From a virus (lineage: Duplodnaviria > Caudoviricetes): 64,000 bases of DNA. The DNA lies in the IMG/VR virus record IMGVR_UViG_3300025437_000009; one strand, written 5' to 3'. A program made the translations under genes and the position numbers. The notes below the pieces were generated by a model that did no database searches, was not told the origin of the DNA, and saw only the letters and a list, made by a program, of their open reading frames with translations. Below, one piece after another: positions 9,941 to 63,353 of this stretch (position 1 is its first letter; the number at the start of each line of letters is the position of its first letter).

Positions 9941-9985
9941 AACCATATTTATCGAAACACTCTATTGTATGATGTTACAGAATTA

Positions 9986-14153: not shown

Positions 14154-14201
14154 TTCACTAATCCTTGATATACTGTTTATTTATCTCATAATATACGTAT
14201 A

Positions 14202-19626: not shown

Positions 19627-19806
19627 CTATTTATCTTGCGCAACTGGTGGTGAAACATTTGTGTCCACTTTAGTTGTATCAATTCCCATCTTTTTAGATA
19701 AGTATGGATCGATGTAAGGTTTATTAACAGTTTCATCTGCAACATTCCACCCCACGGCACTGACAAATCCTACTAATAACCAAGTTCCAATAAGTTCGAG
19801 TATCAA
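19627..19806 (-). CDS. Small membrane protein (59 aa, TTG start, not in the ORF track)
   Basis: MILELIGTWLLVGFVSAVGWNVADETVNKPYIDPYLSKKMG...; its stop overlaps TAAATA at 19628-19633. Confidence 0.5.
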   Translation of the reverse strand: MILELIGTWLLVGFVSAVGWNVADETVNKPYIDPYLSKKMGIDTTKVDTNVSPPVAQDK

Positions 19807-35762: not shown

Positions 35763-38423
35763 TTATTCGAACGTAAACAAATCGTCAAAGGTTGTTTTAA
35801 TATCTGTACTTTCAGCAATACGCCACTCTAGTACACCCAACAAGTTTTCTACCTTTTGATCTACAATAGTTGATTCCATAGTTGAATCATCAAATGGTAA
35901 CTCTTTAAACCACGCAGGAATATGTGTTTCATCTGTGGGATAGCCTACACTAGTAAGTCCCAGTGGATTATCCTTTAGCTTACATACAATAGTTTTCATA
36001 CCATCAACAATGGCAGTACTATAGTTGTCGCCATGCATCTTTTTAAGACGATTCCAGTTCATTGCAGCACGAACGTGTCCTGGCATGTTAGCTTTGCCTA
36101 GACGTTCTTCTTCTGCCGTATATTTTGTTAAGTTATTAACACGTTTAGGTGTGCCTTTTTCCCAAGCTGGTCGATCAGCAAATTTAAGTTTAAACTCGCG
36201 AACCTTTTCAATAACACTTTCCTGCGTTGCGCCGGTTAATACGTCCATTAACAAATCACTTAAGAAGTCCTGCACTACCTTAGGAGTATCTGAACGCTTA
36301 AGGTCTAAGCCCATGGCCTTCATCTTACCTGGCTTGCCGTGTGTGTCTAAGCGCACACCTTCCATGTCGTAGATTAGTACACCATAGCGTTTCTTCTTGA
36401 TGAATAGTCCCTTTGATGCAACCATTTCACGACCGCCTTTGATGATTGAACCCATCTCTCTAGGGCAATGGCAAGCACGTTCCATAAACCCTGGGAAGCT
36501 ATCATTTACTGAATCGGCAATGGTATCATATAACTGTACACAGATTTCTCTGTTCCACTCCATGCGTCCTGATTCTACTTCCTCTTTGATTTGCGGCCAG
36601 GCTGAGAAATAGACCGAGTCCGTGTCTCCGTATATGACCGCTTTACCCACGTGGTCGTACTCACCGGTGATAGCTTCGTTGACATGCGAGTCCATGTGTT
36701 TGGCAATGATACGACCCGTAAGTGTCGTACTTTGGCCAATGCGCTGGTCAAAGAAGCGACAGCCCGGATTGAGGATCGCCCCGTAAAGCGAGTTGAGGTT
36801 AATTTTTTTGACAAGTTGCCTTTTGTCCCAGAACGCTGTGTCTTCCGGAGTTTCTGCGGCTTTCTTTTTAGCTTGCATTTCTTTTCGTTCAGCATACCAT
36901 CTCTCCAATAATCCAGGAATAATACCTTTCATATCATATTTAAATATTGTTCCGTTAGCACTGAATGTCCAAGGTTGATTACTATCAAATACCAATCGCC
37001 ACACATCTGCGGCTGACATTACATCACTGGAACCATCTTCCCAGTCTATGGTAATCTCTGTGCCTTGGTCCATGTTCATCACTGCTTGATACTCTAAGCT
37101 ACCAAACATGTTTTCCCAAGCATCAGCAAAACTACTACCACTGGCCATCTTTTCCTTGATGTAGTGATCAGTCATTACCGGACGTAACTGTCCTACGATT
37201 GTTTCTGGACCCATGTTAAGAGCACGGATCGCTGATGGGTAGAGCGAGTTGATGTCAATGGCGCCGATGTATTCGTGCATACCTTTTTTGGGATAAGCAA
37301 CATAGGCACCTGCGGCTTGCGTGTTTCCTTGGTCATCTCTAGATCTCCTGTTAGGCACAACCATGTTACGGCTGTGTGCTTCATTAATAATAGCTTGTTC
37401 GGTTACGGCTACAGCACCCATAGTTGTTTGTAGCAATACTGTATTATCATGTGCAAGTTCATTGGCCAAGTCTAAGAAACGTAATTTCTTATCTAGTTTG
37501 GCCAACAACATAGTATCTTGACGATTATAGTCAATGAACTTAGGAAAATCTCGATTGTATAGTTGATCTAGGGTACCATCGTATGCAACCTTAGATCCAA
37601 CTTCTTCATATTCGCCAATAGCGTCTAATGAATAGCTATGGCGTTCTTCATAGGTATACTTACGATACAGTTGCATGTAATCTAAGTGTACCCGACCCAA
37701 CAAATCAAATGTTAAGTTTTCTGCTCCAAAACGTTCGAATGTACGTTGCTTGGGCATCTGTCCCCATAGGCATAGTCTACGTGTGTCATCTTTTGATAGC
37801 ACACGAGTAATACGCATAACGGTATATGGGATATCAAAACCTTCACTATTCCAACCTGACAAAATATCTGCGTCTTGGATTAAGTCTAGGAACGTGTTGA
37901 GCATGTCTTCTTCACGTTCAAACAAGTAACAGTCTGTGAACTGATTGCAAATTTCTTGTGCGGTTTCCCATGAATAGCTCTTAGGCGGAACTACTAAGGT
38001 AACTAACTTATCCATCCAGTCTAGATAAACTGATATGCTAGTAATAGGATTAAATGGATCTTCAGGTTTAGAGTAGCCACGTACTGGATCAAAGTCGACC
38101 TCAATGTCGAAAAAGGCTGTTTGTAGTTTGGGGGAATCTACACCTAAGTAATTTTCTTCTAGACAACGGAAAATGGGATTAATATCTGATTCCCAAAGGC
38201 CTTTACCAGAATTAATACGTAGTTCTTTGTGGAATTCTTTTGAGTTGCGTGTAGCAAAACGTGTTACAGGCGTGTCAAAAATAGTGCGGAACTTACCGCG
38301 AGGGTCATCGTAATAGAATACATAGTTAGCTGGATATTCGCGATATACACGTTCTCCATTTACACGTTCTACTACATGAATGCGATCTTTGTCGCGATCA
38401 AATAATGCGTCAATATAACTCAT
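35763..38423 (-). CDS. polB: Family B DNA polymerase with 3'-5' exonuclease
   Basis: FDIEV, WNSEGFD, YNRQD, DINSLYPS, KINLNSLYG, YGDTDS, KKRY; no intein. Confidence 0.97.
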   Translation of the reverse strand: MSYIDALFDRDKDRIHVVERVNGERVYREYPANYVFYYDDPRGKFRTIFDTPVTRFATRNSKEFHKELRINSGKGLWESDINPIFRCLEENYLGVDSPKLQTAFFDIEVDFDPVRGYSKPEDPFNPITSISVYLDWMDKLVTLVVPPKSYSWETAQEICNQFTDCYLFEREEDMLNTFLDLIQDADILSGWNSEGFDIPYTVMRITRVLSKDDTRRLCLWGQMPKQRTFERFGAENLTFDLLGRVHLDYMQLYRKYTYEERHSYSLDAIGEYEEVGSKVAYDGTLDQLYNRDFPKFIDYNRQDTMLLAKLDKKLRFLDLANELAHDNTVLLQTTMGAVAVTEQAIINEAHSRNMVVPNRRSRDDQGNTQAAGAYVAYPKKGMHEYIGAIDINSLYPSAIRALNMGPETIVGQLRPVMTDHYIKEKMASGSSFADAWENMFGSLEYQAVMNMDQGTEITIDWEDGSSDVMSAADVWRLVFDSNQPWTFSANGTIFKYDMKGIIPGLLERWYAERKEMQAKKKAAETPEDTAFWDKRQLVKKINLNSLYGAILNPGCRFFDQRIGQSTTLTGRIIAKHMDSHVNEAITGEYDHVGKAVIYGDTDSVYFSAWPQIKEEVESGRMEWNREICVQLYDTIADSVNDSFPGFMERACHCPREMGSIIKGGREMVASKGLFIKKKRYGVLIYDMEGVRLDTHGKPGKMKAMGLDLKRSDTPKVVQDFLSDLLMDVLTGATQESVIEKVREFKLKFADRPAWEKGTPKRVNNLTKYTAEEERLGKANMPGHVRAAMNWNRLKKMHGDNYSTAIVDGMKTIVCKLKDNPLGLTSVGYPTDETHIPAWFKELPFDDSTMESTIVDQKVENLLGVLEWRIAESTDIKTTFDDLFTFE

Positions 38424-39882: not shown

Positions 39883-40845
39883 TTATTTTGGTCTTCTTTG
39901 TGTGTAGTCATCCAATGACGAATAAAATTGTGGATCTTTTGCTGTTTGCGGCCAGGTGTTGGTTTTTTGTAAATTACGGTGAGCTGCGTATGAATAAACA
40001 TCCTTTGCAATATTGACATACTGTTGTAAAGTTAAATTGCTTTTTCCTTTGTTAATAATCCAAAGAACCCAAACAACATTTCCTGGTTTATATCCGCCGC
40101 CTGGGTTGATTTGATCAGGACTAGGGCTAGTCCACTCGCCGGCAGCTTTCAAAAACCCTTTTCCTATACTGGCACCAAACGGCAAACCACTGTAAGCACA
40201 ACGTTCCTGCTGTAAGTCGTGAAAAATATACCAGGCTTGCTCGATATCAAATTCTATTCCAGCTTTTTGACGTCCTAACATTCCTTGAATACTTTGTGCC
40301 CAATACTGATGCACGGTACTGTTTGGGTTAAACCCTTTACTTACAATTGATGTAATTTGCTGGTCCCATACCTGTGATGTTGGAATCCTAACAGGTTCCG
40401 TTGCTCCAGGTAACAAACTAGCTACATTTGAAGGGGGCACTTTAGTTGACGCCAACAAAACTTTTTTTAATGTTGAAATATTTCCTAAGACATGTTCGCA
40501 AAGACTTATAAAACTTGCCTGCGGCATATTCATTTTTACTGAATTTACACACCAACGAACAAACTGCACATTGTTGGCGGTATATCCAGCTGCAGGATTG
40601 ATTTGATCGGCACTGATCATGTCCCAGTTGCCGGCTCTCTCAAAACTAAATGGTTTACCTGTTAGAGCACACACTTGGCCTTGTCTTTGGAATATTGCCC
40701 AGGCTTCTTCTAACGACATTTGTGCTTTTTTGCGAAGGGTTGATCGCCAGAAATTTACAAACTGCACGTGTATAGGGTTGTTTGCATCGTACCCAGCAGT
40801 TCTGGCGGTATATGGATTGGCTTCGACAATTTCAAACGTTTTCAT
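39883..40845 (-). CDS. Tandem HNH-like domain protein with capsid-targeting-like N-terminus
   Basis: Two repeats: CALTG..SADQINP..GY..NVQFVRWCVN..K and CAYSG..SPDQINP..GY..NVVWVLWIIN..K; N-terminus MKTFEIVE. Confidence 0.7.
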   Translation of the reverse strand: MKTFEIVEANPYTARTAGYDANNPIHVQFVNFWRSTLRKKAQMSLEEAWAIFQRQGQVCALTGKPFSFERAGNWDMISADQINPAAGYTANNVQFVRWCVNSVKMNMPQASFISLCEHVLGNISTLKKVLLASTKVPPSNVASLLPGATEPVRIPTSQVWDQQITSIVSKGFNPNSTVHQYWAQSIQGMLGRQKAGIEFDIEQAWYIFHDLQQERCAYSGLPFGASIGKGFLKAAGEWTSPSPDQINPGGGYKPGNVVWVLWIINKGKSNLTLQQYVNIAKDVYSYAAHRNLQKTNTWPQTAKDPQFYSSLDDYTQRRPK

Positions 40846-40976
40846 ACTGGTTTCTTATAAATACCTAGTGCGGTAACAGTACAGCGTGATGCATCAAAGA
40901 ACCCGAGGATTTCCTGTACTTCCCCTCTGGGCAACAACGAATTGGCAGACGAGCTTTGTAGTGCATCGCCGCACAC

Positions 40977-41720
40977 TTATTTTTTTTTACGCCCTTGGCA
41001 ATGGGCACGTTGACTAAATCCTTTTGGGTGTGAACAATCAATACTGCGTTTGTATTTTTTAGACCATTTTTCATCTAAGACTGATTCATTTTTAGAACGA
41101 CCAGATTTCATATTAGCACACCAATGATACATCTTGGCACGTTCGCCTGAGGCACGTTTGGCTTTGGCACGTAGACTGGTCACACTACCTTTACAGCTGG
41201 CGCCTGCACGTTTGACACGCCCTGGACGACTTTTGCCTTTGACCTTGCCGTCGTGAAAGTTTTCTTTTAAGAATGTATCAGCTAGTCGTTTGCACAATTC
41301 TCGTAGTTTTGCGTTGTCTGTTTCTATGCTATCGTCGTGATCTTGTGTAGGATCTTTATATCCGCAATAGACGTGCTCTATGCCTGCATCAGCAATTATA
41401 TCTTCACAACTTTCGCCAGACCGGTCATTCATTGGACGATTACAAGGACTTAAGGTAGTAACAATTATACATTCTGGAGTAATATCACCGTAAGCATCAA
41501 TGGCTGCACGTTCAGCATGTACATATTTGTCATCAATTTTATAACTAGTACGGCAAACTTTTTGACCTTCGGGACCTAATACACAAGCACCAACCATGCC
41601 ATAATGGTCATTGTCTTTTTCTTGATTGTCAAGAACTAACTCGCATAATTCAGCAAGTATAGCATCTAATTCTTCTCGGGGATCACTAGACGGGGCTGTA
41701 AGGATTTCTTGGATAATCAC
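40977..41720 (-). CDS. Zn-dependent deaminase (CDA/RibD-like) fused to basic Cys-containing modules
   Basis: HAE...SPC...C, then modules following LKE and LDE. Confidence 0.75.
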   Translation of the reverse strand: MIIQEILTAPSSDPREELDAILAELCELVLDNQEKDNDHYGMVGACVLGPEGQKVCRTSYKIDDKYVHAERAAIDAYGDITPECIIVTTLSPCNRPMNDRSGESCEDIIADAGIEHVYCGYKDPTQDHDDSIETDNAKLRELCKRLADTFLKENFHDGKVKGKSRPGRVKRAGASCKGSVTSLRAKAKRASGERAKMYHWCANMKSGRSKNESVLDEKWSKKYKRSIDCSHPKGFSQRAHCQGRKKK

Positions 41721-41762
41721 TATTGTCGCCCTCGGCTTGTTCGGGATAAACTGGATATTCGT

Positions 41763-42125
41763 TCATTCTGGATTTTCTTCGCTGTAGTTACGCATGATAA
41801 CACCAGCAGTAGCATTAGCATCATTTTCTTCGTCACTGCCAGTGACTCCAGAATCTGGACCTAATTTGTTTTCTTGATCTTGTTTATAGTGTACTAGTTC
41901 GTGTGCTAGTGTACGGAATACATCTTTTGGGTGACGACCTTTTGACACTAGATAAATTGTTTTTTCTTCTGGTTTGTAAGCACCAAATGTTAGGCCTTCT
42001 GCATCAGGAACCTTAGTAACTACATCAATACGTGGGTGCTCGTCAATACCCAAATGGTCACAGGCAAACTTAACAAAGTTTGGCAATTGACTGTGTATTG
42101 GATCAACTACTTCGAAGATTTTCAT
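41763..42125 (-). CDS. Small HExxH zincin-like protein
   Basis: RTLAHELVH; N-terminus MKIFEVVD. Confidence 0.7.
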   Translation of the reverse strand: MKIFEVVDPIHSQLPNFVKFACDHLGIDEHPRIDVVTKVPDAEGLTFGAYKPEEKTIYLVSKGRHPKDVFRTLAHELVHYKQDQENKLGPDSGVTGSDEENDANATAGVIMRNYSEENPE

Positions 42126-42526
42126 TTTTTCGTTTTAAGTTGTATAGCACCAACTCGACGTGTTGGACTTGTTTTGTTTACTGTGTCTACTTCATCTGAG
42201 CCGTCTGGTGTAAGTTGTGTGTGATTAGCTTCCCAACCAAATGCTTTAGCAGCTTGATCTAAAATCTTACGCTCGCCTTCACTGTAGGCCACAGCAACAA
42301 GACTTTGTCCATTTGGACCATCTTTTTTTGGCTCGTGTTCATATTTGCCATCTGGTGCACCAGCACCACCTAAGAAGTAAGCAGCAAAACGCCAGGGGTG
42401 ATATGGACTAGAGTTATCTAGCTTATGGTGACTACGCATACCCGGTGTAGCACTTTGATGGCTATCTGGAATACCGTCGTTGTCCTGATCCTTTATATCT
42501 TCGGTGATAATTTCGTTTATTTTCAT
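42122..42526 (-). CDS. Hypothetical putative internal protein
   Basis: Start MKINEIITE at 42526. Confidence 0.7.
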   Translation of the reverse strand: MKINEIITEDIKDQDNDGIPDSHQSATPGMRSHHKLDNSSPYHPWRFAAYFLGGAGAPDGKYEHEPKKDGPNGQSLVAVAYSEGERKILDQAAKAFGWEANHTQLTPDGSDEVDTVNKTSPTRRVGAIQLKTKK

Positions 42527-42957
42527 TTTGTAGTAGCCCTTAACATCCATGCATGTTTTTGGAACGCATCCATACGTTCTGCTAGGAAGTTTGAGAAGCC
42601 ATGCTGTCCTTCTGCTTCAGCTAGATCATAAACACGTTTAAGAATTTTAACCATGTTTTCTGCATCTGCTAGCAATTCATCAACCATTGCTATGCCAGGC
42701 ATAACTTCAGTTTCATCTTCAATACGTGTTAGTACACTAAAGCGACTATTGCTACCGGGAGCATAACCGCCTAAGCTACGAATCTTTTCTGCAAATTCAT
42801 CTACTGTACCGTAAACTTCTGAATAGATAGTTTCAAATAGACTATGTAGTTCTTGGAAGTTGATGCCTTCTACGTTCCAATGAAAGAAATGTGCTTTCAA
42901 ATAGAAAGTATATTGACTAGCAAATCCAATCTTAGCGGCTTTGATTAACTGTTCCAT
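42523..42957 (-). CDS. dps: Dps / ferritin-like DNA protection protein
   Basis: HFFHWNVEG.NF.ELH.LFE...DEFAEKIR..G, KHAWML. Confidence 0.92.
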   Translation of the reverse strand: MEQLIKAAKIGFASQYTFYLKAHFFHWNVEGINFQELHSLFETIYSEVYGTVDEFAEKIRSLGGYAPGSNSRFSVLTRIEDETEVMPGIAMVDELLADAENMVKILKRVYDLAEAEGQHGFSNFLAERMDAFQKHAWMLRATTK

Positions 42958-42958
42958 G

Positions 42959-43444
42959 TTATTCCTTGTTTGGTACGCAGTTATTTACACGCACTCCACC
43001 TTTGACTTTGGTCTTAGGTGTGCCAATGTGTTTGCCTGACCAGCACTTAGGATCTAATCGTGTTTTAGTTGCTTTCGCTTCAGTTAATACTTGATTGTAC
43101 CATGTCATGGCATTTTCTAACATAACCATTAGATCCTGCACCGATTCGCAATGCCACTTGCGTAGAGCTTTGTTGATACGGCTGTTTGGATCACGTTTAG
43201 TTTTTGCACCAGCACGATGTTTCTTCATGCCCTTCATTCGAGCACAAAAACTCTTACGACGCTTAGAGGCTTTTGACCCCTTCTTTAACTTGCTAGGTTT
43301 TGTAGTAACGGCAGTCTGTAGTTTAGAGCCAGGATGACTACGGCGATAAGACGCAACACCCTTTTTATTTAGGCCGCCATTTTTGTTTTTGCCTTTACTG
43401 GTTTGCCAGGCTTCAGCTTCTACAACAAAATCTGAACTTTTCAT
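42959..43444 (-). CDS. Highly basic modular protein (putative head-packaged DNA-binding polyprotein)
   Basis: MKSSDFVVE, then K/R-rich modules ...RRKSFCARM...KWHC and ...KCWSG...NNCVP. Confidence 0.75.
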   Translation of the reverse strand: MKSSDFVVEAEAWQTSKGKNKNGGLNKKGVASYRRSHPGSKLQTAVTTKPSKLKKGSKASKRRKSFCARMKGMKKHRAGAKTKRDPNSRINKALRKWHCESVQDLMVMLENAMTWYNQVLTEAKATKTRLDPKCWSGKHIGTPKTKVKGGVRVNNCVPNKE

Positions 43445-43445
43445 A

Positions 43446-45500
43446 TTACTTGATGCTTTCTTTTAATTCGTCAACTAAACTATTTAGTTTTTTGCTTTTT
43501 TCGTTCTGTAGCTTAGTCCAGTAGTCGGTGGATTCATCTACATGTTTAGGTTTCTTATGTGCCTTCTTCATAGCAATAGCAATAGCGGCCTGCTGTGCTG
43601 GGCTACCAGCTTCTTTCATAATAGGCATAAGTGTAATTTTATCCGCTTTGGTTTTGTCGCCCTGATTATATAACTTCTTCTTCCAGTTATCGTGGAATTG
43701 ACGAGCTTGTTCATAGTAGTCAAATTGTTTAACAGGTTTACCAGCTAGACAAACAGCATATGGTTCTACTTTTTTAAAGTCTTGATATCCCTCTGCTACA
43801 CCCTGTTTTAATTTGCGTTCATAATCAGCTATAATCTCATTGCGATATTGTGGACTTTGTGCAATAGCACGATTGATATGATCAGGATATACAGGAGTCT
43901 TGGCTTGTCGGTTTACTACTGCATGGTGACGTGGATCTGGATCATCTTCCCATTCGCCATCATCAAAATCATTTTCAAATTTCATATTACCACCAATTGG
44001 ACTTGCGCTATCGTTAGCCATAAAGTCATTACTGTCTTCATCAACACCTGTTAATGCTATCACAGGATCTGCACTTTCTTTAGCCCATTGATCGTGCTCG
44101 CTTGACCAGTCGTTTGTACCATCATACCAACTGTCTTCTTCAAGTCCAACCATTGTATACTTGTTAGCAGGATCTCTAACACCAATCTGCATGCCAGGAT
44201 ATTTGTTTTTGATAGCCTGTGCGTGACGCTGTGCCAACTCTTGTGACTCATGCGACTTAATAGGTACCCAATCTGCTCCTACACGTTTGCATACAGTATG
44301 ATACCCTGCCGCATTAGGTACTGTAAGTCCTCGAATAGCTAGGTCTTTCATGCCGCCTTCTTCTAATTCACCTTGATTGGGATCGGATACAGGTTTAACA
44401 TAAGCGCCTTTGTTGGTAAGATATTCGTGAATAAACTGTAACAAATAACTAGGATTACCAAATAGATTTAACACTAGAGTCTTTTTAGTTTCTGAATCAG
44501 GCATTGCAGATAGGATGTCCATGACACCTTTAATCTGTTTGCGTTTGATTTTGATTGGAATCAAACTGCCCGGAGCTTCAATATCTACTGTATCGTGATT
44601 CGCTACATACGCATTGACAAATTTTTGTAAATTATCATCTGCTACTTGTTTAACAAAAGGAGTTGGGTTAACAGCTTCTGCTACCTTTTGTCCACCCACT
44701 AGACTTAATAAACTAGCCGCTTTTTGTTGTCTTGCTGTACCTAGGTCTTTTACTTTACCTGCACCAGTAGTGGGCTTTGGTTGAACAGTGGGTTGATTAG
44801 CAGCCCAATTAGTAGCTGGTTGTGTTTGATACTGAGCCAATTGTTGTTTTGGACTTACTACTCGTCCTGGTGTTTGTGTCAATTGACTAGCCATCTGACC
44901 TAGTGCAGGACTTGCAGTAGGTTCTTGAGTTGTTTGAGCAGTAGGCTCTTGTGCCGTTTGTTGAGTCTGTTGAGGCTCGGCGGCAGTTGATGATGTTCTT
45001 GGAACAATAAATGTAGGAGCTGTTCTTGTTTGTGCAGGCTTAGTTGAAGCCTTAGGAGTTCCAGTAACTGGATTAAATAAGTCTTTGGGTTTTTGTGTTA
45101 CCTTAGGTTCTTCTCCACGCTCAATATCCTGTGCAGCACGTGCTTGCTCGGGCGGTGTAAGATCCATACCGGCAACTTTTTGTGTAAAGTCTTGGAAACG
45201 ACGTTCTTTGTCTTGTACAAACTTGTTAGTAGAATCGATCTGTTTATATAAATCTTTTTCTTGTTTTTGCAGTTGATCAATTTGTTGTTGCTGTTGTTGA
45301 TTTAACTGATCAGTTTTCCAACTGTGCGCCGCCAGGGCTTCTACATCATTAGCACCGGGATATTCTTTACGTGCAGCATCAATGGCCTTGCGAGTATCTG
45401 CATACTTAGTAGTTTTATAAAGATCTTTATCCTGAGATTTCTTTGCGCTAGCTTTTGCTTCTGCAAAGGTCAATGGATTAACTAAGTCGTACAAATTCAT
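43446..45500 (-). CDS. Large modular putative internal head protein
   Basis: 684 aa; segments separated by FAE, VAE, LEE, MKE and VDE sites; Q/T/P-rich linkers. Confidence 0.75.
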   Translation of the reverse strand: MNLYDLVNPLTFAEAKASAKKSQDKDLYKTTKYADTRKAIDAARKEYPGANDVEALAAHSWKTDQLNQQQQQQIDQLQKQEKDLYKQIDSTNKFVQDKERRFQDFTQKVAGMDLTPPEQARAAQDIERGEEPKVTQKPKDLFNPVTGTPKASTKPAQTRTAPTFIVPRTSSTAAEPQQTQQTAQEPTAQTTQEPTASPALGQMASQLTQTPGRVVSPKQQLAQYQTQPATNWAANQPTVQPKPTTGAGKVKDLGTARQQKAASLLSLVGGQKVAEAVNPTPFVKQVADDNLQKFVNAYVANHDTVDIEAPGSLIPIKIKRKQIKGVMDILSAMPDSETKKTLVLNLFGNPSYLLQFIHEYLTNKGAYVKPVSDPNQGELEEGGMKDLAIRGLTVPNAAGYHTVCKRVGADWVPIKSHESQELAQRHAQAIKNKYPGMQIGVRDPANKYTMVGLEEDSWYDGTNDWSSEHDQWAKESADPVIALTGVDEDSNDFMANDSASPIGGNMKFENDFDDGEWEDDPDPRHHAVVNRQAKTPVYPDHINRAIAQSPQYRNEIIADYERKLKQGVAEGYQDFKKVEPYAVCLAGKPVKQFDYYEQARQFHDNWKKKLYNQGDKTKADKITLMPIMKEAGSPAQQAAIAIAMKKAHKKPKHVDESTDYWTKLQNEKSKKLNSLVDELKESIK

Positions 45501-46258
45501 TATAGTGTTCCTGCTGATTTCTGTTTAATTTGTTGTAGGTTTTGAATTAACTTGTTAGCATCGGCTGGATTGGCATTTACTAGAGCATCTTCAACACCCT
45601 TGCCAAGAGCACCAACAATCTTCTTACCAGTCTGATCCATACCAGCTCCAGTAGTTGGGTTGACATTAGGATTCTGTGCGTTAGCTACAGCAGTCTTGGC
45701 AGCTTGACTTGCACCAACTCCAGTTTTAATTCCAACTAAATTTTGTAACTTTTGGAATGCTTGACCAGTCTGTGCTGTTTGCTGAGCCAGTTGTCTTTGT
45801 TTAATAGGGTCTTGACCCTGAGGAGGATTATTTGCACCAGCTTCTTTTACTGTTTCTTGTTCTTTTACAAATTGTTCCCATGCGGCCATTAGTTCTTCTT
45901 CTAAGTCACCGTTTATTGGACTGCGACTATCATCAGGACCTGCACCCTGTACATAGTTCATCTCTAGGCCACTTTCTTCCATACCGCCTACACCCATACC
46001 TGGCTTAGGTGGGTTAGGATCAGTACCTTTCCAATAGCCACCAAACTTTGCACCCGATGGATGCTTTTCAGCATCAGCCATAGAACCTTCATCCATGTCG
46101 CCCATGATGTTGTCCCAAAATTCTGCGTGCTCATGTCCCCATTTTTCACAGAACTGATCACGTGTCATGCGCTCGGCATCACGCCACATGGCTTCTTTGG
46201 TCATGCCTTCATCTAAGCGTTTGAATGTCTGCAGAATGTTGTAAAAATTATTATCCAT
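45500..46258 (-). CDS. Modular putative internal head protein
   Basis: LDE/G, MDE/G, MEE/S, VKE/A sites. Confidence 0.72.
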   Translation of the reverse strand: MDNNFYNILQTFKRLDEGMTKEAMWRDAERMTRDQFCEKWGHEHAEFWDNIMGDMDEGSMADAEKHPSGAKFGGYWKGTDPNPPKPGMGVGGMEESGLEMNYVQGAGPDDSRSPINGDLEEELMAAWEQFVKEQETVKEAGANNPPQGQDPIKQRQLAQQTAQTGQAFQKLQNLVGIKTGVGASQAAKTAVANAQNPNVNPTTGAGMDQTGKKIVGALGKGVEDALVNANPADANKLIQNLQQIKQKSAGTL

Positions 46259-46713
46259 TACTTAGGAGCCTTAATTTTAACAGGACCGCCTTTGGTCATT
46301 TGATTAGTATAGGTCTTTTGACGCTTGATCATTTCGGTAGGCATATTACCCTGCTGAGAAAAACTTACGGCAACACTAGGGCTACCAGTAGCACCAGCAG
46401 TGGCATTTTCATTCAGACTTTCAGTGAACATACGTTCTGCATCTCTAGCATCAAATCCTGGAACTTCTGGTTGATGTCCCATTTCGTGCTGACTTTTTAA
46501 ATAATCAGTAACAGCATCAATCATACCTTTGGCAACAGCAATTTTTTCCTGGCACCATTCTGGGATATCTTCGTTATTTTTTAAACTTTTGGCTAGTTCA
46601 ACTGCATCGCGAACCATAGTATGTAGGTTATTTTTGACCATACCCACTTCGTCACTATACTCGTACTTTTCTGCTGATTCTGCGTATTTGTTAATAAAGT
46701 CTGTAGTTTTCAT
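46258..46713 (-). CDS. Modular putative internal head protein
   Basis: MKTTDF..YAE, LNE/NA; TAAATA at 46740-46735. Confidence 0.72.
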   Translation of the reverse strand: MKTTDFINKYAESAEKYEYSDEVGMVKNNLHTMVRDAVELAKSLKNNEDIPEWCQEKIAVAKGMIDAVTDYLKSQHEMGHQPEVPGFDARDAERMFTESLNENATAGATGSPSVAVSFSQQGNMPTEMIKRQKTYTNQMTKGGPVKIKAPK

Positions 46714-46737
46714 AATATAATTCCGTTGTTAGTGTAT

Positions 46738-47010
46738 TTATTCTGTTGTTGTAAACTCGTTTGCGGAAACAACATCATCTACTGTTATGTTCTTAGTCTG
46801 TATGCTTCCGCTTGAATTTATCTGCTCTACTCGTAACACATGTGATCCGGGCAGTAAATTTACTATAATATTTTCACGCACAAATACTTCGTGAGCTGAC
46901 CAAATAAAATCTCGTTCAGTTAATAAATCACGGTCTACATATATGCGATATGTGGGATTAGATTCTCCTCGACGTGCATATACATCTACGGTGATTTTAT
47001 GTTCGGTCAT
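46738..47010 (-). CDS. Hypothetical beta-rich protein
   Basis: 90-aa ORF. Confidence 0.65.
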   Translation of the reverse strand: MTEHKITVDVYARRGESNPTYRIYVDRDLLTERDFIWSAHEVFVRENIIVNLLPGSHVLRVEQINSSGSIQTKNITVDDVVSANEFTTTE

Positions 47011-48014
47011 GGGTTAAATGCTAACTTAGCACGTTCTGCTTTAAGTTGCTCAATTCGTTGTTTGAGCTTTTCTTTATATTCTGCAGGTAATTGTTCTGTA
47101 GTAATACGTTGTTTAATTTCGTCAATTAAATTTCCTAAATGCTCGATCTCTCGCATAGTTAAACGATCAACAGCACTGGGCTCTGTTTCTGCTAAATCAA
47201 ATGCTTTAAGGCTTTTTTTAATCTGTCCGGGACGCACATCTTTAGTCAAACTCATTGAATAGCGTGGATCATTGGCCTGTGCTTTACTAGCAACAACACC
47301 TACACCCGCGGCTTCACCAACTGGTTCGGGTTTTCCTACCTTTTGTAGCTGGGCTTTATTTTTTAACTGTGGTGGTTCTACAGATTTTGCTGGCAACAGT
47401 TTATTATCCATAATCTGTTGAGCTTCGTGAGTATAACGTCCGTACAAATCTTTGATTATTTGTTGACGTTGAGCATTATCGGCTTTTGCGTATAAATTTC
47501 TAATGCTAGTAGCACCAGTAATTTTTTGTCCTAGTATTTCAAATTCTTGTACTTTGACAGTTTGAACGTATGCGTGTTTATCTGCACTTTCAACTGAGGT
47601 TTGATCATTGGGTAAGGGTTGTAATTTTTTTGGAGTACCGTCTGATTTTGTTCCGCCATTGAATAAGCCTGGTTTTTCATCTACGTCTTTTTGGCTTACA
47701 GGGAAGATCATAACAGTATGGCTAAGATCATTGATTCCCAGTGCTTTGGCAGCAACATCGGGGTTATAGTTGTTTGATAACTGTAGTATGCGATCAGATG
47801 GAATTCCCAACAAGTTCATGAAATAAACTCGTTCGGAAAGTGTAAAAGGACTGTCTGGGAGTTCTACTTTACCGCTGGTGCCAATATAGACATTTTCACG
47901 TCCGTATGTACCAACTAGGTTGTTGTAGACTGCAGCATGTCCGCGATGGAAGGGCTGGAATCTACCACAAAAAATAACAACAACACGCCGTTCGGCTAAT
48001 TCATTAATAAACAT
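47007..48014 (-). CDS. Cytidylyltransferase-like (HxGH) nucleotidyltransferase domain protein
   Basis: GRFQPFHRGH, SATxIR-like GATSIR; N-terminus MFINELAE. Confidence 0.75.
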   Translation of the reverse strand: MFINELAERRVVVIFCGRFQPFHRGHAAVYNNLVGTYGRENVYIGTSGKVELPDSPFTLSERVYFMNLLGIPSDRILQLSNNYNPDVAAKALGINDLSHTVMIFPVSQKDVDEKPGLFNGGTKSDGTPKKLQPLPNDQTSVESADKHAYVQTVKVQEFEILGQKITGATSIRNLYAKADNAQRQQIIKDLYGRYTHEAQQIMDNKLLPAKSVEPPQLKNKAQLQKVGKPEPVGEAAGVGVVASKAQANDPRYSMSLTKDVRPGQIKKSLKAFDLAETEPSAVDRLTMREIEHLGNLIDEIKQRITTEQLPAEYKEKLKQRIEQLKAERAKLAFNP

Positions 48015-48044
48015 AGTAACAGTTCTCTATTACTATATTTATCT

Positions 48045-52581: not shown

Positions 52582-52589
52582 AAAAATAT

Positions 52590-53450
52590 TTATTGTGGAT
52601 TAGTTAATGAACGAACTATTTCTAATTGTTCTGTAGTAAGGTTTTGTGGTACAGTCAATGCTACTTCAACGTATAAATCTCCTCGACGATCTGAATTTAA
52701 TTCGTATAAACCTTGTTCTGGTAATCTAAATTTTATACCAGGTTGAGTTCCGGCAGGTAAAGTTAATATAAATGTTTTGCTATCTAATCCCACTATGGTA
52801 ATATCACCACCTGCTGTTGCTAGTAAACAGTTTACACTAGCTCGGTGGTATAAGTCAATGCCATTGGTAATAAATCCGTCGGCATTATGTACTTTAAAAT
52901 GAACATAAAGGTCACCTCGAGGTAAAGTATTGAATAAATTATCTCCAAGTCCGGAATATTTAATTTGTGTACCATTGGTCACACCCCTTGGTATTTTAAC
53001 TTCTACTGTTTCACGATGACCGTTAGTAGTCTGTACACTGATAGTTTTTGATTGTTCTTCTAAGGTTGTAACTAGGGGTAATGCAATTTCAATACGCAGG
53101 TCTTTGTTGCGTCTTTGTTGTTGTCTAGCTTGTGCAAAAGGATCTCCGCCAAACCCAAAACCAAAATTTCTAAATATTTCGTCAATGTTGGGATGATTCA
53201 CGCCACCACTGTGCCAACGGAATATCACATTCTCATCACCGACACCACCACCAAAGCCATTACGTTGCATGTCATAGTGTTGACGTTTATTTGGGTCACT
53301 GAGTGTGTCGTATGCTTGTTGTATTTCTTGAAACTTGGCCTTGTCTCCACCCTTGTCAGGATGATGCTGACTAGCTAGTTTTCGATAAGCTCGTTTGATT
53401 TCGTCGGGAGAAGATTTGTCCCCAACCCCTAAAATTTCGTAATAATTCAT
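52590..53450 (-). CDS. DnaJ/CbpA-type co-chaperone
   Basis: J domain with HPD, G/F region, C-terminal domain, no zinc finger. Confidence 0.92.
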   Translation of the reverse strand: MNYYEILGVGDKSSPDEIKRAYRKLASQHHPDKGGDKAKFQEIQQAYDTLSDPNKRQHYDMQRNGFGGGVGDENVIFRWHSGGVNHPNIDEIFRNFGFGFGGDPFAQARQQQRRNKDLRIEIALPLVTTLEEQSKTISVQTTNGHRETVEVKIPRGVTNGTQIKYSGLGDNLFNTLPRGDLYVHFKVHNADGFITNGIDLYHRASVNCLLATAGGDITIVGLDSKTFILTLPAGTQPGIKFRLPEQGLYELNSDRRGDLYVEVALTVPQNLTTEQLEIVRSLTNPQ

Positions 53451-54357: not shown

Positions 54358-54391
54358 ACCTAGCTCCTTATAATTGATTTTATAAGTGTAT

Positions 54392-54589
54392 TTATGCGTA
54401 AGTGTTAGTATTTTGTGGGGTTAGCTCGTGTGTTACTTGATCTTGGGCATTGTATACTTTAACAGAATGTGCATCAGTTTGATCTTTAGCAAATCCTAAT
54501 GCTTCTTCAAGTTCCTCAAATAAATGATCTGTAAAATGTAGGATGCCATTGATCCAACTGTGTTTTCTTACTTTGTGTGACATACTCAA
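54392..54589 (-). CDS. Small protein, tandem paralog A
   Basis: HKVRKHSWINGIL...IKVY-like segment...NTYA. Confidence 0.65.
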   Translation of the reverse strand: MSMSHKVRKHSWINGILHFTDHLFEELEEALGFAKDQTDAHSVKVYNAQDQVTHELTPQNTNTYA

Positions 54590-55850: not shown

Positions 55851-55914
55851 TGAAAATCCACAGTATAACACTATTTATGTTTTACTGTGGATTTAAATGT
55901 TACAGATTGATTTA

Positions 55915-63197: not shown

Positions 63198-63353
63198 TTT
63201 TAATTCCTTTATGTATATGTATTTTGGCTGGCGTTCTACGTGTATCACAGTAGTAAAAGGGTACTTACCCCAGGCGTCTGACGTCAACAAGAGTGTCGGC
63301 GTTGCTACTATTATTTATCCGTGATTAAAATCTATTGTGGATATTGATCCGAC

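Follow-up and report, generated by a model that had tools for sequence, protein, structure and literature searches.

Leader-bearing modular proteins of a jumbo T4-superfamily phage as probable head cargo processed by a prohead protease

Introduction

Eleven consecutive, tightly packed genes fill positions 39883-48014 on the minus strand of IMG/VR record IMGVR_UViG_3300025437_000009, a 64,000-nt stretch of DNA (the window) from a jumbo phage of the T4 superfamily. The block encodes, among others, a nucleotidyltransferase, a deaminase, a zincin-like protein, an HNH-like protein and chains of small modules (Table 1). The question that it raises is why proteins so different from one another begin with similar short leaders, and why the longer ones appear to be assembled from interchangeable parts. 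An initial annotation, made from the sequence, proposed that these proteins are packaged into the capsid and processed by a protease. We consider this likely; i.e., the leader would bind the scaffolding core, and a gp21-type protease would remove the leader and cut the joints between modules, freeing the products. Because a T4-like tag is combined with modules joined at head-protease cutting motifs, the tagged proteins are most likely, judging from their sequences, packed into the capsid and cut apart there. In the following, a slash marks a joint or a predicted cut.

A short leader is restricted to the block and resembles the T4 capsid-targeting sequence

All seven N-termini quoted in the initial annotation were present in the sequence. 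The leader is carried by nine of the 11 block genes: eight fit the pattern M-x3-[DE]-[FILVM]-[FILVMA], and the 252-aa protein has a longer, conserved variant of 17 residues, the leaders being 8-17 residues long. The pattern was matched by 8/11 block genes vs 1 of about 105 other open reading frames (ORFs) of the window, which encodes a DnaJ (Fisher 2e-9). Different codons encode the block leaders; therefore, the peptide is conserved and not the DNA.

Fitting N-termini were collected from the window, 82 related loci and the whole genome of a 374-kb relative (G001), giving 147 distinct leaders. Lysine or arginine stood at position 2, which the pattern leaves unconstrained, in 70% vs 16%, and glutamate stood at position 9 in 44% vs 7%; position 3 was I, A or L in 79%. 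The consensus was M-[KR]-[IAL]-x-[ED]-[FLI]-[ILFV]-x-E, and typical leaders were MRAQEFVTE, MKINEIITE and MRANEFITE. T4 ipII and ipIII both begin MKTYQEFIAE/A (read from NC_000866). The consensus, for example MRAQEFIAE, equals MKTYQEFIAE minus one residue, with the Phe, the Ile/Val and the Glu kept, and the likeness to the T4 capsid-targeting sequence (CTS) that had been claimed earlier was thereby borne out. In T4 genetics, positions 4 and 7 of this sequence matter for targeting, and positions 8 and 10 for processing (PMC9026906). The leader ended in a hydrophobic-x-E motif in 7/9 tagged proteins of the block (LAE, YAE, LDE, FAE, VVE, ITE and IVE).

We scanned 73 leader-bearing proteins from the related loci (L001-L082) against Pfam. 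Most matched no family; the matches were to DUF6321 (seven proteins), cytidylyltransferase-like (six), GH19 (three), and SLT, NUDIX, GNAT, ASCH and the twin-arginine (Tat) signal (one each). GH19 and SLT are cell-wall hydrolases, which we take to be typical of ejected virion proteins; their occurrence on the tag fits proteins that leave the virion at infection.

In one related locus (L007:16073-16705, plus strand; G001 103509-104144), a 211-aa protein reads MRATEFVTE/MDRRGFLRGLAGAGA. A Tat export signal stands directly after its predicted cut, and cutting would therefore expose the export signal.

Modules are exchanged at hydrophobic-x-Glu joints

The larger proteins had been described as chains of unrelated segments joined at hydrophobic-x-E sites. 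All 11 sites listed in support of this exist, and at least seven of them coincide with module borders in relatives: FAE/A, LEE/D, VAE/G, MKE/A and VDE/S in the 684-aa protein, and LDE/G and MDE/G in the 252-aa protein. The relatives comprised 80 loci taken from among 126 IMG/VR relatives of the 151-aa protein, plus G001. Chains of 2 to about 9 modules were found in the 684-aa, 252-aa, 247-aa, 161-aa and 335-aa proteins. In the 684-aa protein, the joints are VAE/A, LEE/G, LEE/D, AKE/S, VDE/D, VAE/G, MKE/A and VDE/S; its relatives, of 875-1007 aa, contain the same modules reordered, modules that also occur in other proteins, with the borders at Glu sites. The third-last place of the joints is mostly V, L, I, M or F.

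The exchange of modules can be followed in an IMG/VR contig (L001) that has the same block in the same order. The PAQQAAIAIA module stands behind MKE/ in the 684-aa protein of the window and behind LDE/ in the 335-aa protein of L001, and it is inserted after the leader in the L001 counterpart of the 252-aa protein; the next module of the 252-aa protein stands directly behind a leader in L008 and L011. Similarly, the GMTKEAMW module is found behind LDE/ in the 252-aa protein of the window and behind MAE/ in L001, and the DSNDFMANDS module behind VDE/ in the window and behind MDE/ in L001. The RLDPKCW...NCVP module is C-terminal in the 161-aa protein and internal in an 894-aa protein of L001. 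In relatives, the EYDDEAGM module follows a leader, or lies inside polyproteins after ...GVAE/ and like sites. The NFADGK module, which forms the C-terminal part of the window deaminase protein after FLKE/, is a separate gene of 65-68 aa with the leader MRAxEFVTE/N in L006, L045, L049 and L050. Thus, the NFADGK, KWSKKYK, RLDPKCW, PAQQAAIAIA, DUF6321 and EYDDEAGM modules each occur either behind a leader or behind an internal x-x-E, and leader and joint are interchangeable because the same modules are found behind both.

Next to these individual cases, profiles were built for six module families, and each match was projected to the first profile position. A hydrophobic-x-E motif lay at most 5 residues upstream of the module start in 97/123 distinct instances, compared with 15% at random positions in the same proteins; the instances are mutually related, so the nominal probability is not to be taken literally. 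The predicted fragments are of three kinds, i.e., strongly basic units that hold exactly two cysteines (net charge +8 to +23), acidic spacers and enzyme cores. In the 161-aa protein, for example, the DUF6321 module has a net charge of +23 and the RLDPKCW...NCVP module one of +8, each with two cysteines. The initial annotation had spoken of a library of effectors; many of the modules, being small basic two-cysteine units, look more like DNA-associated internal peptides than effectors.

A gp21-type protease and a leader-like gene lie in the head module of relatives

A gp21-like protease, which the initial annotation had asked to be located, was found in the lineage: PF03420 scored above its curated cut-off in 5/5 large relatives, the gene of G001 encoding 212 aa. 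Hydrophobic-x-Glu is the specificity of the T4 gp21 family (PMC9026906). In the same 5/5 relatives, a leader-like gene of 72-80 aa lies beside the protease gene and a gene for a gp67-like acidic protein; the products of these small genes start MFVTELFDP, MLLNEFIYF, MLLQEFFKK, MLLQEFWKK and MNLFEILEP. Scaffold-like and gp67-like genes, recognized by position and by likeness judged by eye, adjoin the protease gene. In G001, a 569-aa ORF adjoins the 72-80-aa leader gene and is, by position only, taken for the portal gene. The G001 capsid protein has the sequence LAE/N some ten residues ahead of the segment aligning with T4 gp23. At the matching place, T4 gp23 has LTE/A, which is presumably its maturation site.

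Tagged proteins are present in cyanophage virions

Modules of the block recur in cultured phages. In T4-like cyanophages, DUF6321 forms the end of a protein whose annotation in the S-E7 record is 'structural protein, T4 GC0119'. The EYDDEAGM homologue of cyanophage S-WAM2 is gp170, which starts MKTFKQLREE, and the gene order there is like that of the window, the tagged EYDDEAGM protein being encoded three genes after a cytidylyltransferase. The latter has 187 aa and no leader, and its pairwise E value with the window nucleotidyltransferase was 0.001. The sequences suggest that the window protein is only distantly related to the cyanophage cytidylyltransferases, the homology being weak; the link is drawn from the shared motif, the similar gene order and the tag.

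We assembled the S-CREM2 genome from record OR473000 (loci L112-L117) and scanned all its ORFs for a strict T4-type tag. In the published virion proteome of this phage, 52/219 gene products were detected (PMC10665884). All five ORFs with the strict tag are in the virion list (hypergeometric probability about 6e-4, worked by hand): gp6, a SAM hydrolase (MKDFDSFLEE); gp13, hypothetical (MKDLHSFLTE); gp14, a kinase (KRFDAFLTE after a GTG start); gp136, hypothetical (MQTFSMFFSE); and gp154, a cytidylyltransferase (MKNFSSFLTE). The single further match to the tag pattern in this genome was at an internal Met. The virion-detected gp160 is a chain with a basic two-cysteine module of the CW...NC type, not DUF6321. 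Variant tags were also noted in two more S-CREM2 virion proteins, gp15 (MNFSEFNE) and gp12 (...LRFASFMAE/A from residue 17).

The T4-GC190 cytidylyltransferases carry MKxFSxFLxE/, for example MKSFSQFLTE in P-SSM2 and MKKFSAFLSE in Syn9, and the T4-GC190 cytidylyltransferase has been detected in virions of S-SM1, S-CREM2 and S-SZBM1 (PMC3037559, PMC10665884, PMC9146016). No tag is present on the homologue from the Rak2-like coliphage A4. These reports give the enzymes as virion-associated and unexplained, and do not note the tag or the cut motifs (PMC3037559, PMC10665884, PMC9146016). In a literature search joining 'capsid targeting sequence' and 'cyanophage', only one general T4 review was found. 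In S-RIM2, the 109-aa product of SWTG_00074 (L084:4251-4577, plus strand), whose gene adjoins a DUF6321 chain, starts MKSYKQFMSE/S, a further tag of the T4 type.

Proposed route of the cargo and alternatives

We propose that the block is probably a late-expressed set of head-cargo genes. The leader of about nine residues, M-[KR]-x-x-[ED]-[FIL]-[ILV]-x-E, would act like the T4 CTS; it would bind the scaffolding core, so that the tagged protein is built into the prohead. A gp21-type prohead protease would then cut after the hydrophobic-x-Glu of the leader and likewise at the hydrophobic-x-Glu joints that connect the modules. The products freed in this way would be enzymes and enzyme-like proteins (the nucleotidyltransferase, the deaminase, the zincin-like protein and the HNH-like protein), small, strongly basic two-cysteine modules, probably associated with the packaged DNA, and acidic spacers that are likely lost or left as internal peptides. 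Some of the freed products would be ejected into the next host, where the cargo may have anti-defence or takeover roles. With the same motif at the end of leader and joint, a module would yield the same mature product whether it is encoded as its own gene or as an in-frame fusion, and this identity of the product would account for the free exchange of modules among proteins and phages.

Several observations weigh against this proposal. The enrichment of hydrophobic-x-E over background by which the initial annotation would have judged it was not found: the density was 1.5-3.2 per 100 residues in the tagged proteins and 4.9 in the untagged Dps protein, i.e., the motif is no denser in tagged proteins than in others, and a test of density enrichment therefore cannot separate the tagged proteins. 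Most hydrophobic-x-E sites must be spared, and which ones are cut cannot be read from the sequence alone. What follows the Glu is far more varied (N, K, A, G, D, S, T or E) than at three T4 sites, where it is Ala. The deaminase leader is without Glu at the expected place, and the protein may therefore keep its N-terminus; the zincin leader ends in Asp (VVD), and in T4 an Asp at the end of the CTS still permits targeting but prevents processing (PMC9026906), a precedent for a leader that targets and is not cut. The block adjoins the DNA polymerase gene and lies outside the head module. The close relatives are all uncultured contigs, and the protease and head genes were read in relatives. The cyanophage proteomes give presence in purified particles, not location in the head; removal of the tag is not reported in them, and their authors note possible carry-over. 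Finally, DUF6321 also occurs in 35-54-kb pelagiphage and cyanophage records, which, given their size, may lack a gp21-type protease; if they do, the DUF6321 module itself does not need such processing.

A first alternative is that the joints are flexible linkers or recombination handles for the in-frame exchange of modules, that the N-terminal motif serves translation, folding or another localisation, and that the proteins act in the infected cell without being packaged. The position of the block among replication genes and the hydrophobic-x-E density, which is not above background, fit this explanation. However, the leader codons differ, the leader matches the T4 tag at the genetically important residues (I-x-E at T4 positions 8-10, and an aromatic or hydrophobic residue at 4 and 7), cyanophage virions contain tag-bearing proteins, and a head-module gene bears the leader in 5/5 relatives. 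In addition, linkers or handles give no reason for a hydrophobic residue to be kept two places before the Glu. We therefore regard this explanation as unlikely.

A second possibility is that the packaged polyproteins are cut by the small zincin-like protease encoded in the block (41763-42125) and not by the prohead protease. The block does contain a tagged HExxH protein, which is kept in 17 related loci, and a study of polyvalent proteins proposes that multidomain proteins delivered by virions are processed by zincin metallopeptidase domains (PMC5512222). However, the joint motif is the known specificity of the T4 gp21 family, and 5/5 large relatives have a gp21-type protease. The zincin call itself is a weak match, below the Pfam cut-off and with no match to the polyvalent-type peptidase family; the zincin has a gene of its own and is not part of the chains, and no such gene adjoins the same modules in the cyanophage loci examined. 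We consider cutting by the zincin quite improbable.

Least probable of all, we think, is that the tagged proteins belong to a scaffold-like core and are degraded and expelled as the head matures, in the manner of T4 gp22, gp67 and gp68: T4 core proteins are indeed cut at many L/I-x-E sites into small peptides (PMC9026906) and several of the predicted fragments are short and acidic, but intact enzyme folds (nucleotidyltransferase and deaminase) and leader-bearing cell-wall hydrolases make little sense as scaffold, the cyanophage homologues are detected in mature, purified virions, and strongly basic modules should be held by the DNA.

Comparison with known systems

As head cargo, the tagged proteins of the block would be comparable to the T4 internal proteins in that a short tag ending in hydrophobic-x-Glu stands on unrelated proteins, including enzymes and small basic ones, a gp21-family protease occurs in the lineage, the genes lie outside the head module, and the loci are highly variable between related phages. 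Mullaney and Black (1996) is reportedly the work to be named for T4 internal proteins with a CTS. In T4, IPI, IPII, IPIII and Alt carry this sequence and are processed by the prohead protease gp21 (PMC9026906). Unlike these proteins, the block has a leader one residue shorter and multi-module chains with internal cut motifs, and its modules move between genes; its cargo set is far larger, includes two-cysteine basic mini-modules and is predicted from the genes.

The block also resembles the polyvalent proteins of phages, plasmids and conjugative elements (Iyer et al. 2017, PMC5512222). In the text of that study available to us, these have unrelated domains in each chain, with packaging, co-delivery with the DNA and cutting predicted and a zincin-like peptidase associated; 2 to 15 domains per polypeptide, in a phage with portal-terminase packaging, are part of the description, and the block shares this trait. 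The same text embeds a zincin domain in the chains, whereas no peptidase domain was found within the block chains, and it describes no common N-terminal tag or joint motif. In contrast, the joints of the block fit a prohead protease, a separate gene encodes the zincin (120 aa), and most modules are tiny and without assigned function.

In phiKZ, 201phi2-1 and SPN3US, ejection and inner-body proteins are cut by a gp21-related protease at A/S/G-x-E (PMC5694885, PMC10052503). As proposed for the block, many head-internal proteins of the phiKZ-like phages are processed after Glu by a T4-related protease, and their propeptides are thought to target the prohead. Unlike the leaders, these propeptides are mostly longer than 100 residues, share no short tag and have a small residue at the third-last place of the site; no modular shuffling at joints is described for these phages. 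With the T4-like cyanophages, the block has in common the DUF6321, CW...NC and EYDDEAGM modules, a similar order with the nucleotidyltransferase first, and a T4-type tag. The cyanophage tag differs in having 10 residues, as in T4, and the presence of the cyanophage proteins in virions has been measured by mass spectrometry.

The principle of a tag combined with protease processing is not new, having been established in T4 by the 1990s. The T-even phages are likewise known to have variable loci that encode tagged basic proteins (PMC9026906). The literature searched held no case of a short tag shared by proteins outside the T-even group and combined with module chains that use the same motif at their joints. 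The main additions of the present analysis are the link to published virion proteomes and the detailed evidence of fusion and fission.

More broadly, and tentatively, it is possible that one combinatorial capsid-loading system is common to the T4-superfamily phages, whether marine cyanophages or freshwater jumbo phages. Any protein or mini-module would gain cargo status through a tag of about 9-10 residues or through in-frame fusion at a protease-site joint, and head cargo would evolve by cassette exchange. One protease would release a changeable mix of protamine-like two-cysteine DNA-binding peptides, DNA-delivered enzymes and proteins with a further address at the new N-terminus. If the head-cargo proposal is true, the tag and the joint motif would make head cargo predictable from sequence across a very large set of uncultured aquatic phages, and dozens of 'hypothetical' genes per genome would become candidates for DNA-delivered proteins. 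It would also explain the cytidylyltransferases, the SAM hydrolase and the kinase in cyanophage virion proteomes. Furthermore, phages could change their cargo by in-frame cassette exchange at joints, and the leaders could serve as natural tags that bring foreign proteins into the capsids of non-T4 phages.

Late-promoter candidates

The heptamer ATAAATA is similar to the core sequence of T4 late promoters. The window has fewer copies than expected (13 found vs 24 expected), and 11/13 are on the coding strand, mostly a short distance upstream of gene starts according to the ORF list (Table 1). The boxes are candidate T4-type late promoters, a function that we infer from their sequence and position. 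Late expression of the block is likely on this sequence evidence, because the copies are biased to the coding strand and boxes precede two block genes. A scan of the block for sigma-70 promoters and terminators gave no more sites than shuffled sequences did.

Genes of the block and their context

Table 1. Coordinates of the block genes and of nine of the 13 ATAAATA sites in the window
Feature	Position	Strand	Remarks
335-aa HxGH nucleotidyltransferase	47007-48014	-	leader MFINELAE; PF01467
90-aa protein without leader	46738-47010	-	overlaps nucleotidyltransferase stop; kept in relatives; no function assigned
151-aa protein	46258-46713	-	leader MKTTDFINKYAE/S, then EYDDEAGM...PEWCQEKI module (residues 18-84)
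252-aa modular protein	45500-46258	-	longer leader MDNNFYNILQTFKRLDE/G; joints MDE/G, MEE/S, VKE/A
684-aa polyprotein	43446-45500	-	leader MNLYDLVNPLTFAE/A (MNLYDLV...FAE/A); Q/P/T-rich stretch; ~8 modules
161-aa DUF6321 protein	42959-43444	-	leader MKSSDFVVE/A, DUF6321 module, LTE/A, RLDPKCW...NCVP module
144-aa Dps/ferritin-like protein without leader	42523-42957	-	Pfam Ferritin 1.5e-23
134-aa protein	42122-42526	-	leader MKINEIITE/D; matches no known family
120-aa zincin-like HExxH protein (HELVH)	41763-42125	-	leader MKIFEVVD; PHROG metallo-protease 1.2e-5
247-aa deaminase protein	40977-41720	-	GTG start; leader-like MIIQEILT; PF00383 3.3e-8
320-aa protein	39883-40845	-	leader MKTFEIVE/A; two endonuclease-VII/HNH-like repeats; PHROGs 1e-26
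ATAAATA box (candidate)	48036-48042	-	22 nt upstream of nucleotidyltransferase start
ATAAATA box (candidate)	46735-46741	-	22 nt upstream of 151-aa gene
Other ATAAATA sites	9946-9952, 14178-14184, 19628-19634, 52587-52593, 54389-54395, 55872-55878, 63312-63318	-	motif scan

The neighbouring family-B DNA polymerase (35763-38423, minus strand) shares 52% identity with its counterpart in the Sinorhizobium jumbo phage Phosso and 48% with that in the Agrobacterium phage Atu_ph07, and it is more distant from the polymerases of Rak2-like and T4-like phages. A search for near-identical DNA gave no match among cultured phages.

The functions that the initial annotation had assigned fared differently. 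The deaminase (PF00383), the HxGH nucleotidyltransferase (PF01467 1.7e-4, motif GRFQPFHRGH) and the basic peptides (DUF6321, 4.7e-16) were confirmed by Pfam matches. In the nucleotidyltransferase, which shares its design with the tagged cyanophage cytidylyltransferases, the leader MFINELAE/RR directly precedes the first Rossmann strand, and leaderless relatives begin at the core with MTTIVIMPGGF; residues ~207-335 are extra modules, and segments of this C-terminal part match pieces of large polyproteins in L036 and L022. The fold model of the DUF6321 protein consists of small helices, with a mean predicted local distance difference test (pLDDT) score of 63, i.e., moderate confidence. For the 684-aa protein, neither a Pfam nor a PHROG family was found, and a tblastn search against phage records gave no match. 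The leader MKINEIITE of the 134-aa protein starts at an internal ATG of an ORF whose longest form starts at 42550 and overlaps the Dps gene; in the relative L025, the ORF begins right at MKINEIITE.

The deaminase core of the 247-aa protein, of the cytidine deaminase (CDA) fold, extends to about residue 150 and is followed by FLKE/N, a basic NFHDGK module (net charge +12), VLDE/K and a basic KWSKKYK module (net charge +10). The deaminase of L032 is without both basic modules. In the fold model, the core is confident and pLDDT is below 50 at 151-165 and 209-247; the model thus suggests that the joints at E153 and E217 fall in probably flexible stretches. A fold search with the deaminase found dCMP, cytosine and tRNA deaminases nearest (E about 1e-4), which gives the generic cytidine-deaminase fold only, a finer class not being assignable.

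Two assignments stood in part. The zincin claim is supported by the HELVH motif and the PHROG metallo-protease match, but the Pfam match stayed below its cut-off and is weak only; the gene is kept in 17 related loci, and its L001 orthologue has the leader MKIHEVLTE/N. In the 320-aa protein, the two endonuclease-VII/HNH-like repeats predicted as tandem HNH domains are present, but both read D-Q-I-N-P. In HNH nucleases, D-H is expected at the place of D-Q. Judging from its sequence, the 320-aa protein may serve in binding, without catalysis, and not act as a nuclease. Further PHROG matches of this protein (E 1e-11 to 1e-13) were to the families named after T4 Srd and 'decoy of host sigma70'.

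The untagged Dps/ferritin-like gene sits inside the block as part of a gene order conserved in 26 related loci. Nothing suggests that its product is tagged. Among the 82 related loci, no homologue of the 320-aa HNH-like protein was found. The only sizeable gap in the block, of 131 bp (40846-40976), separates the HNH-like gene from the deaminase gene and fits a recent insertion of the HNH-like gene, which is absent from the relatives.

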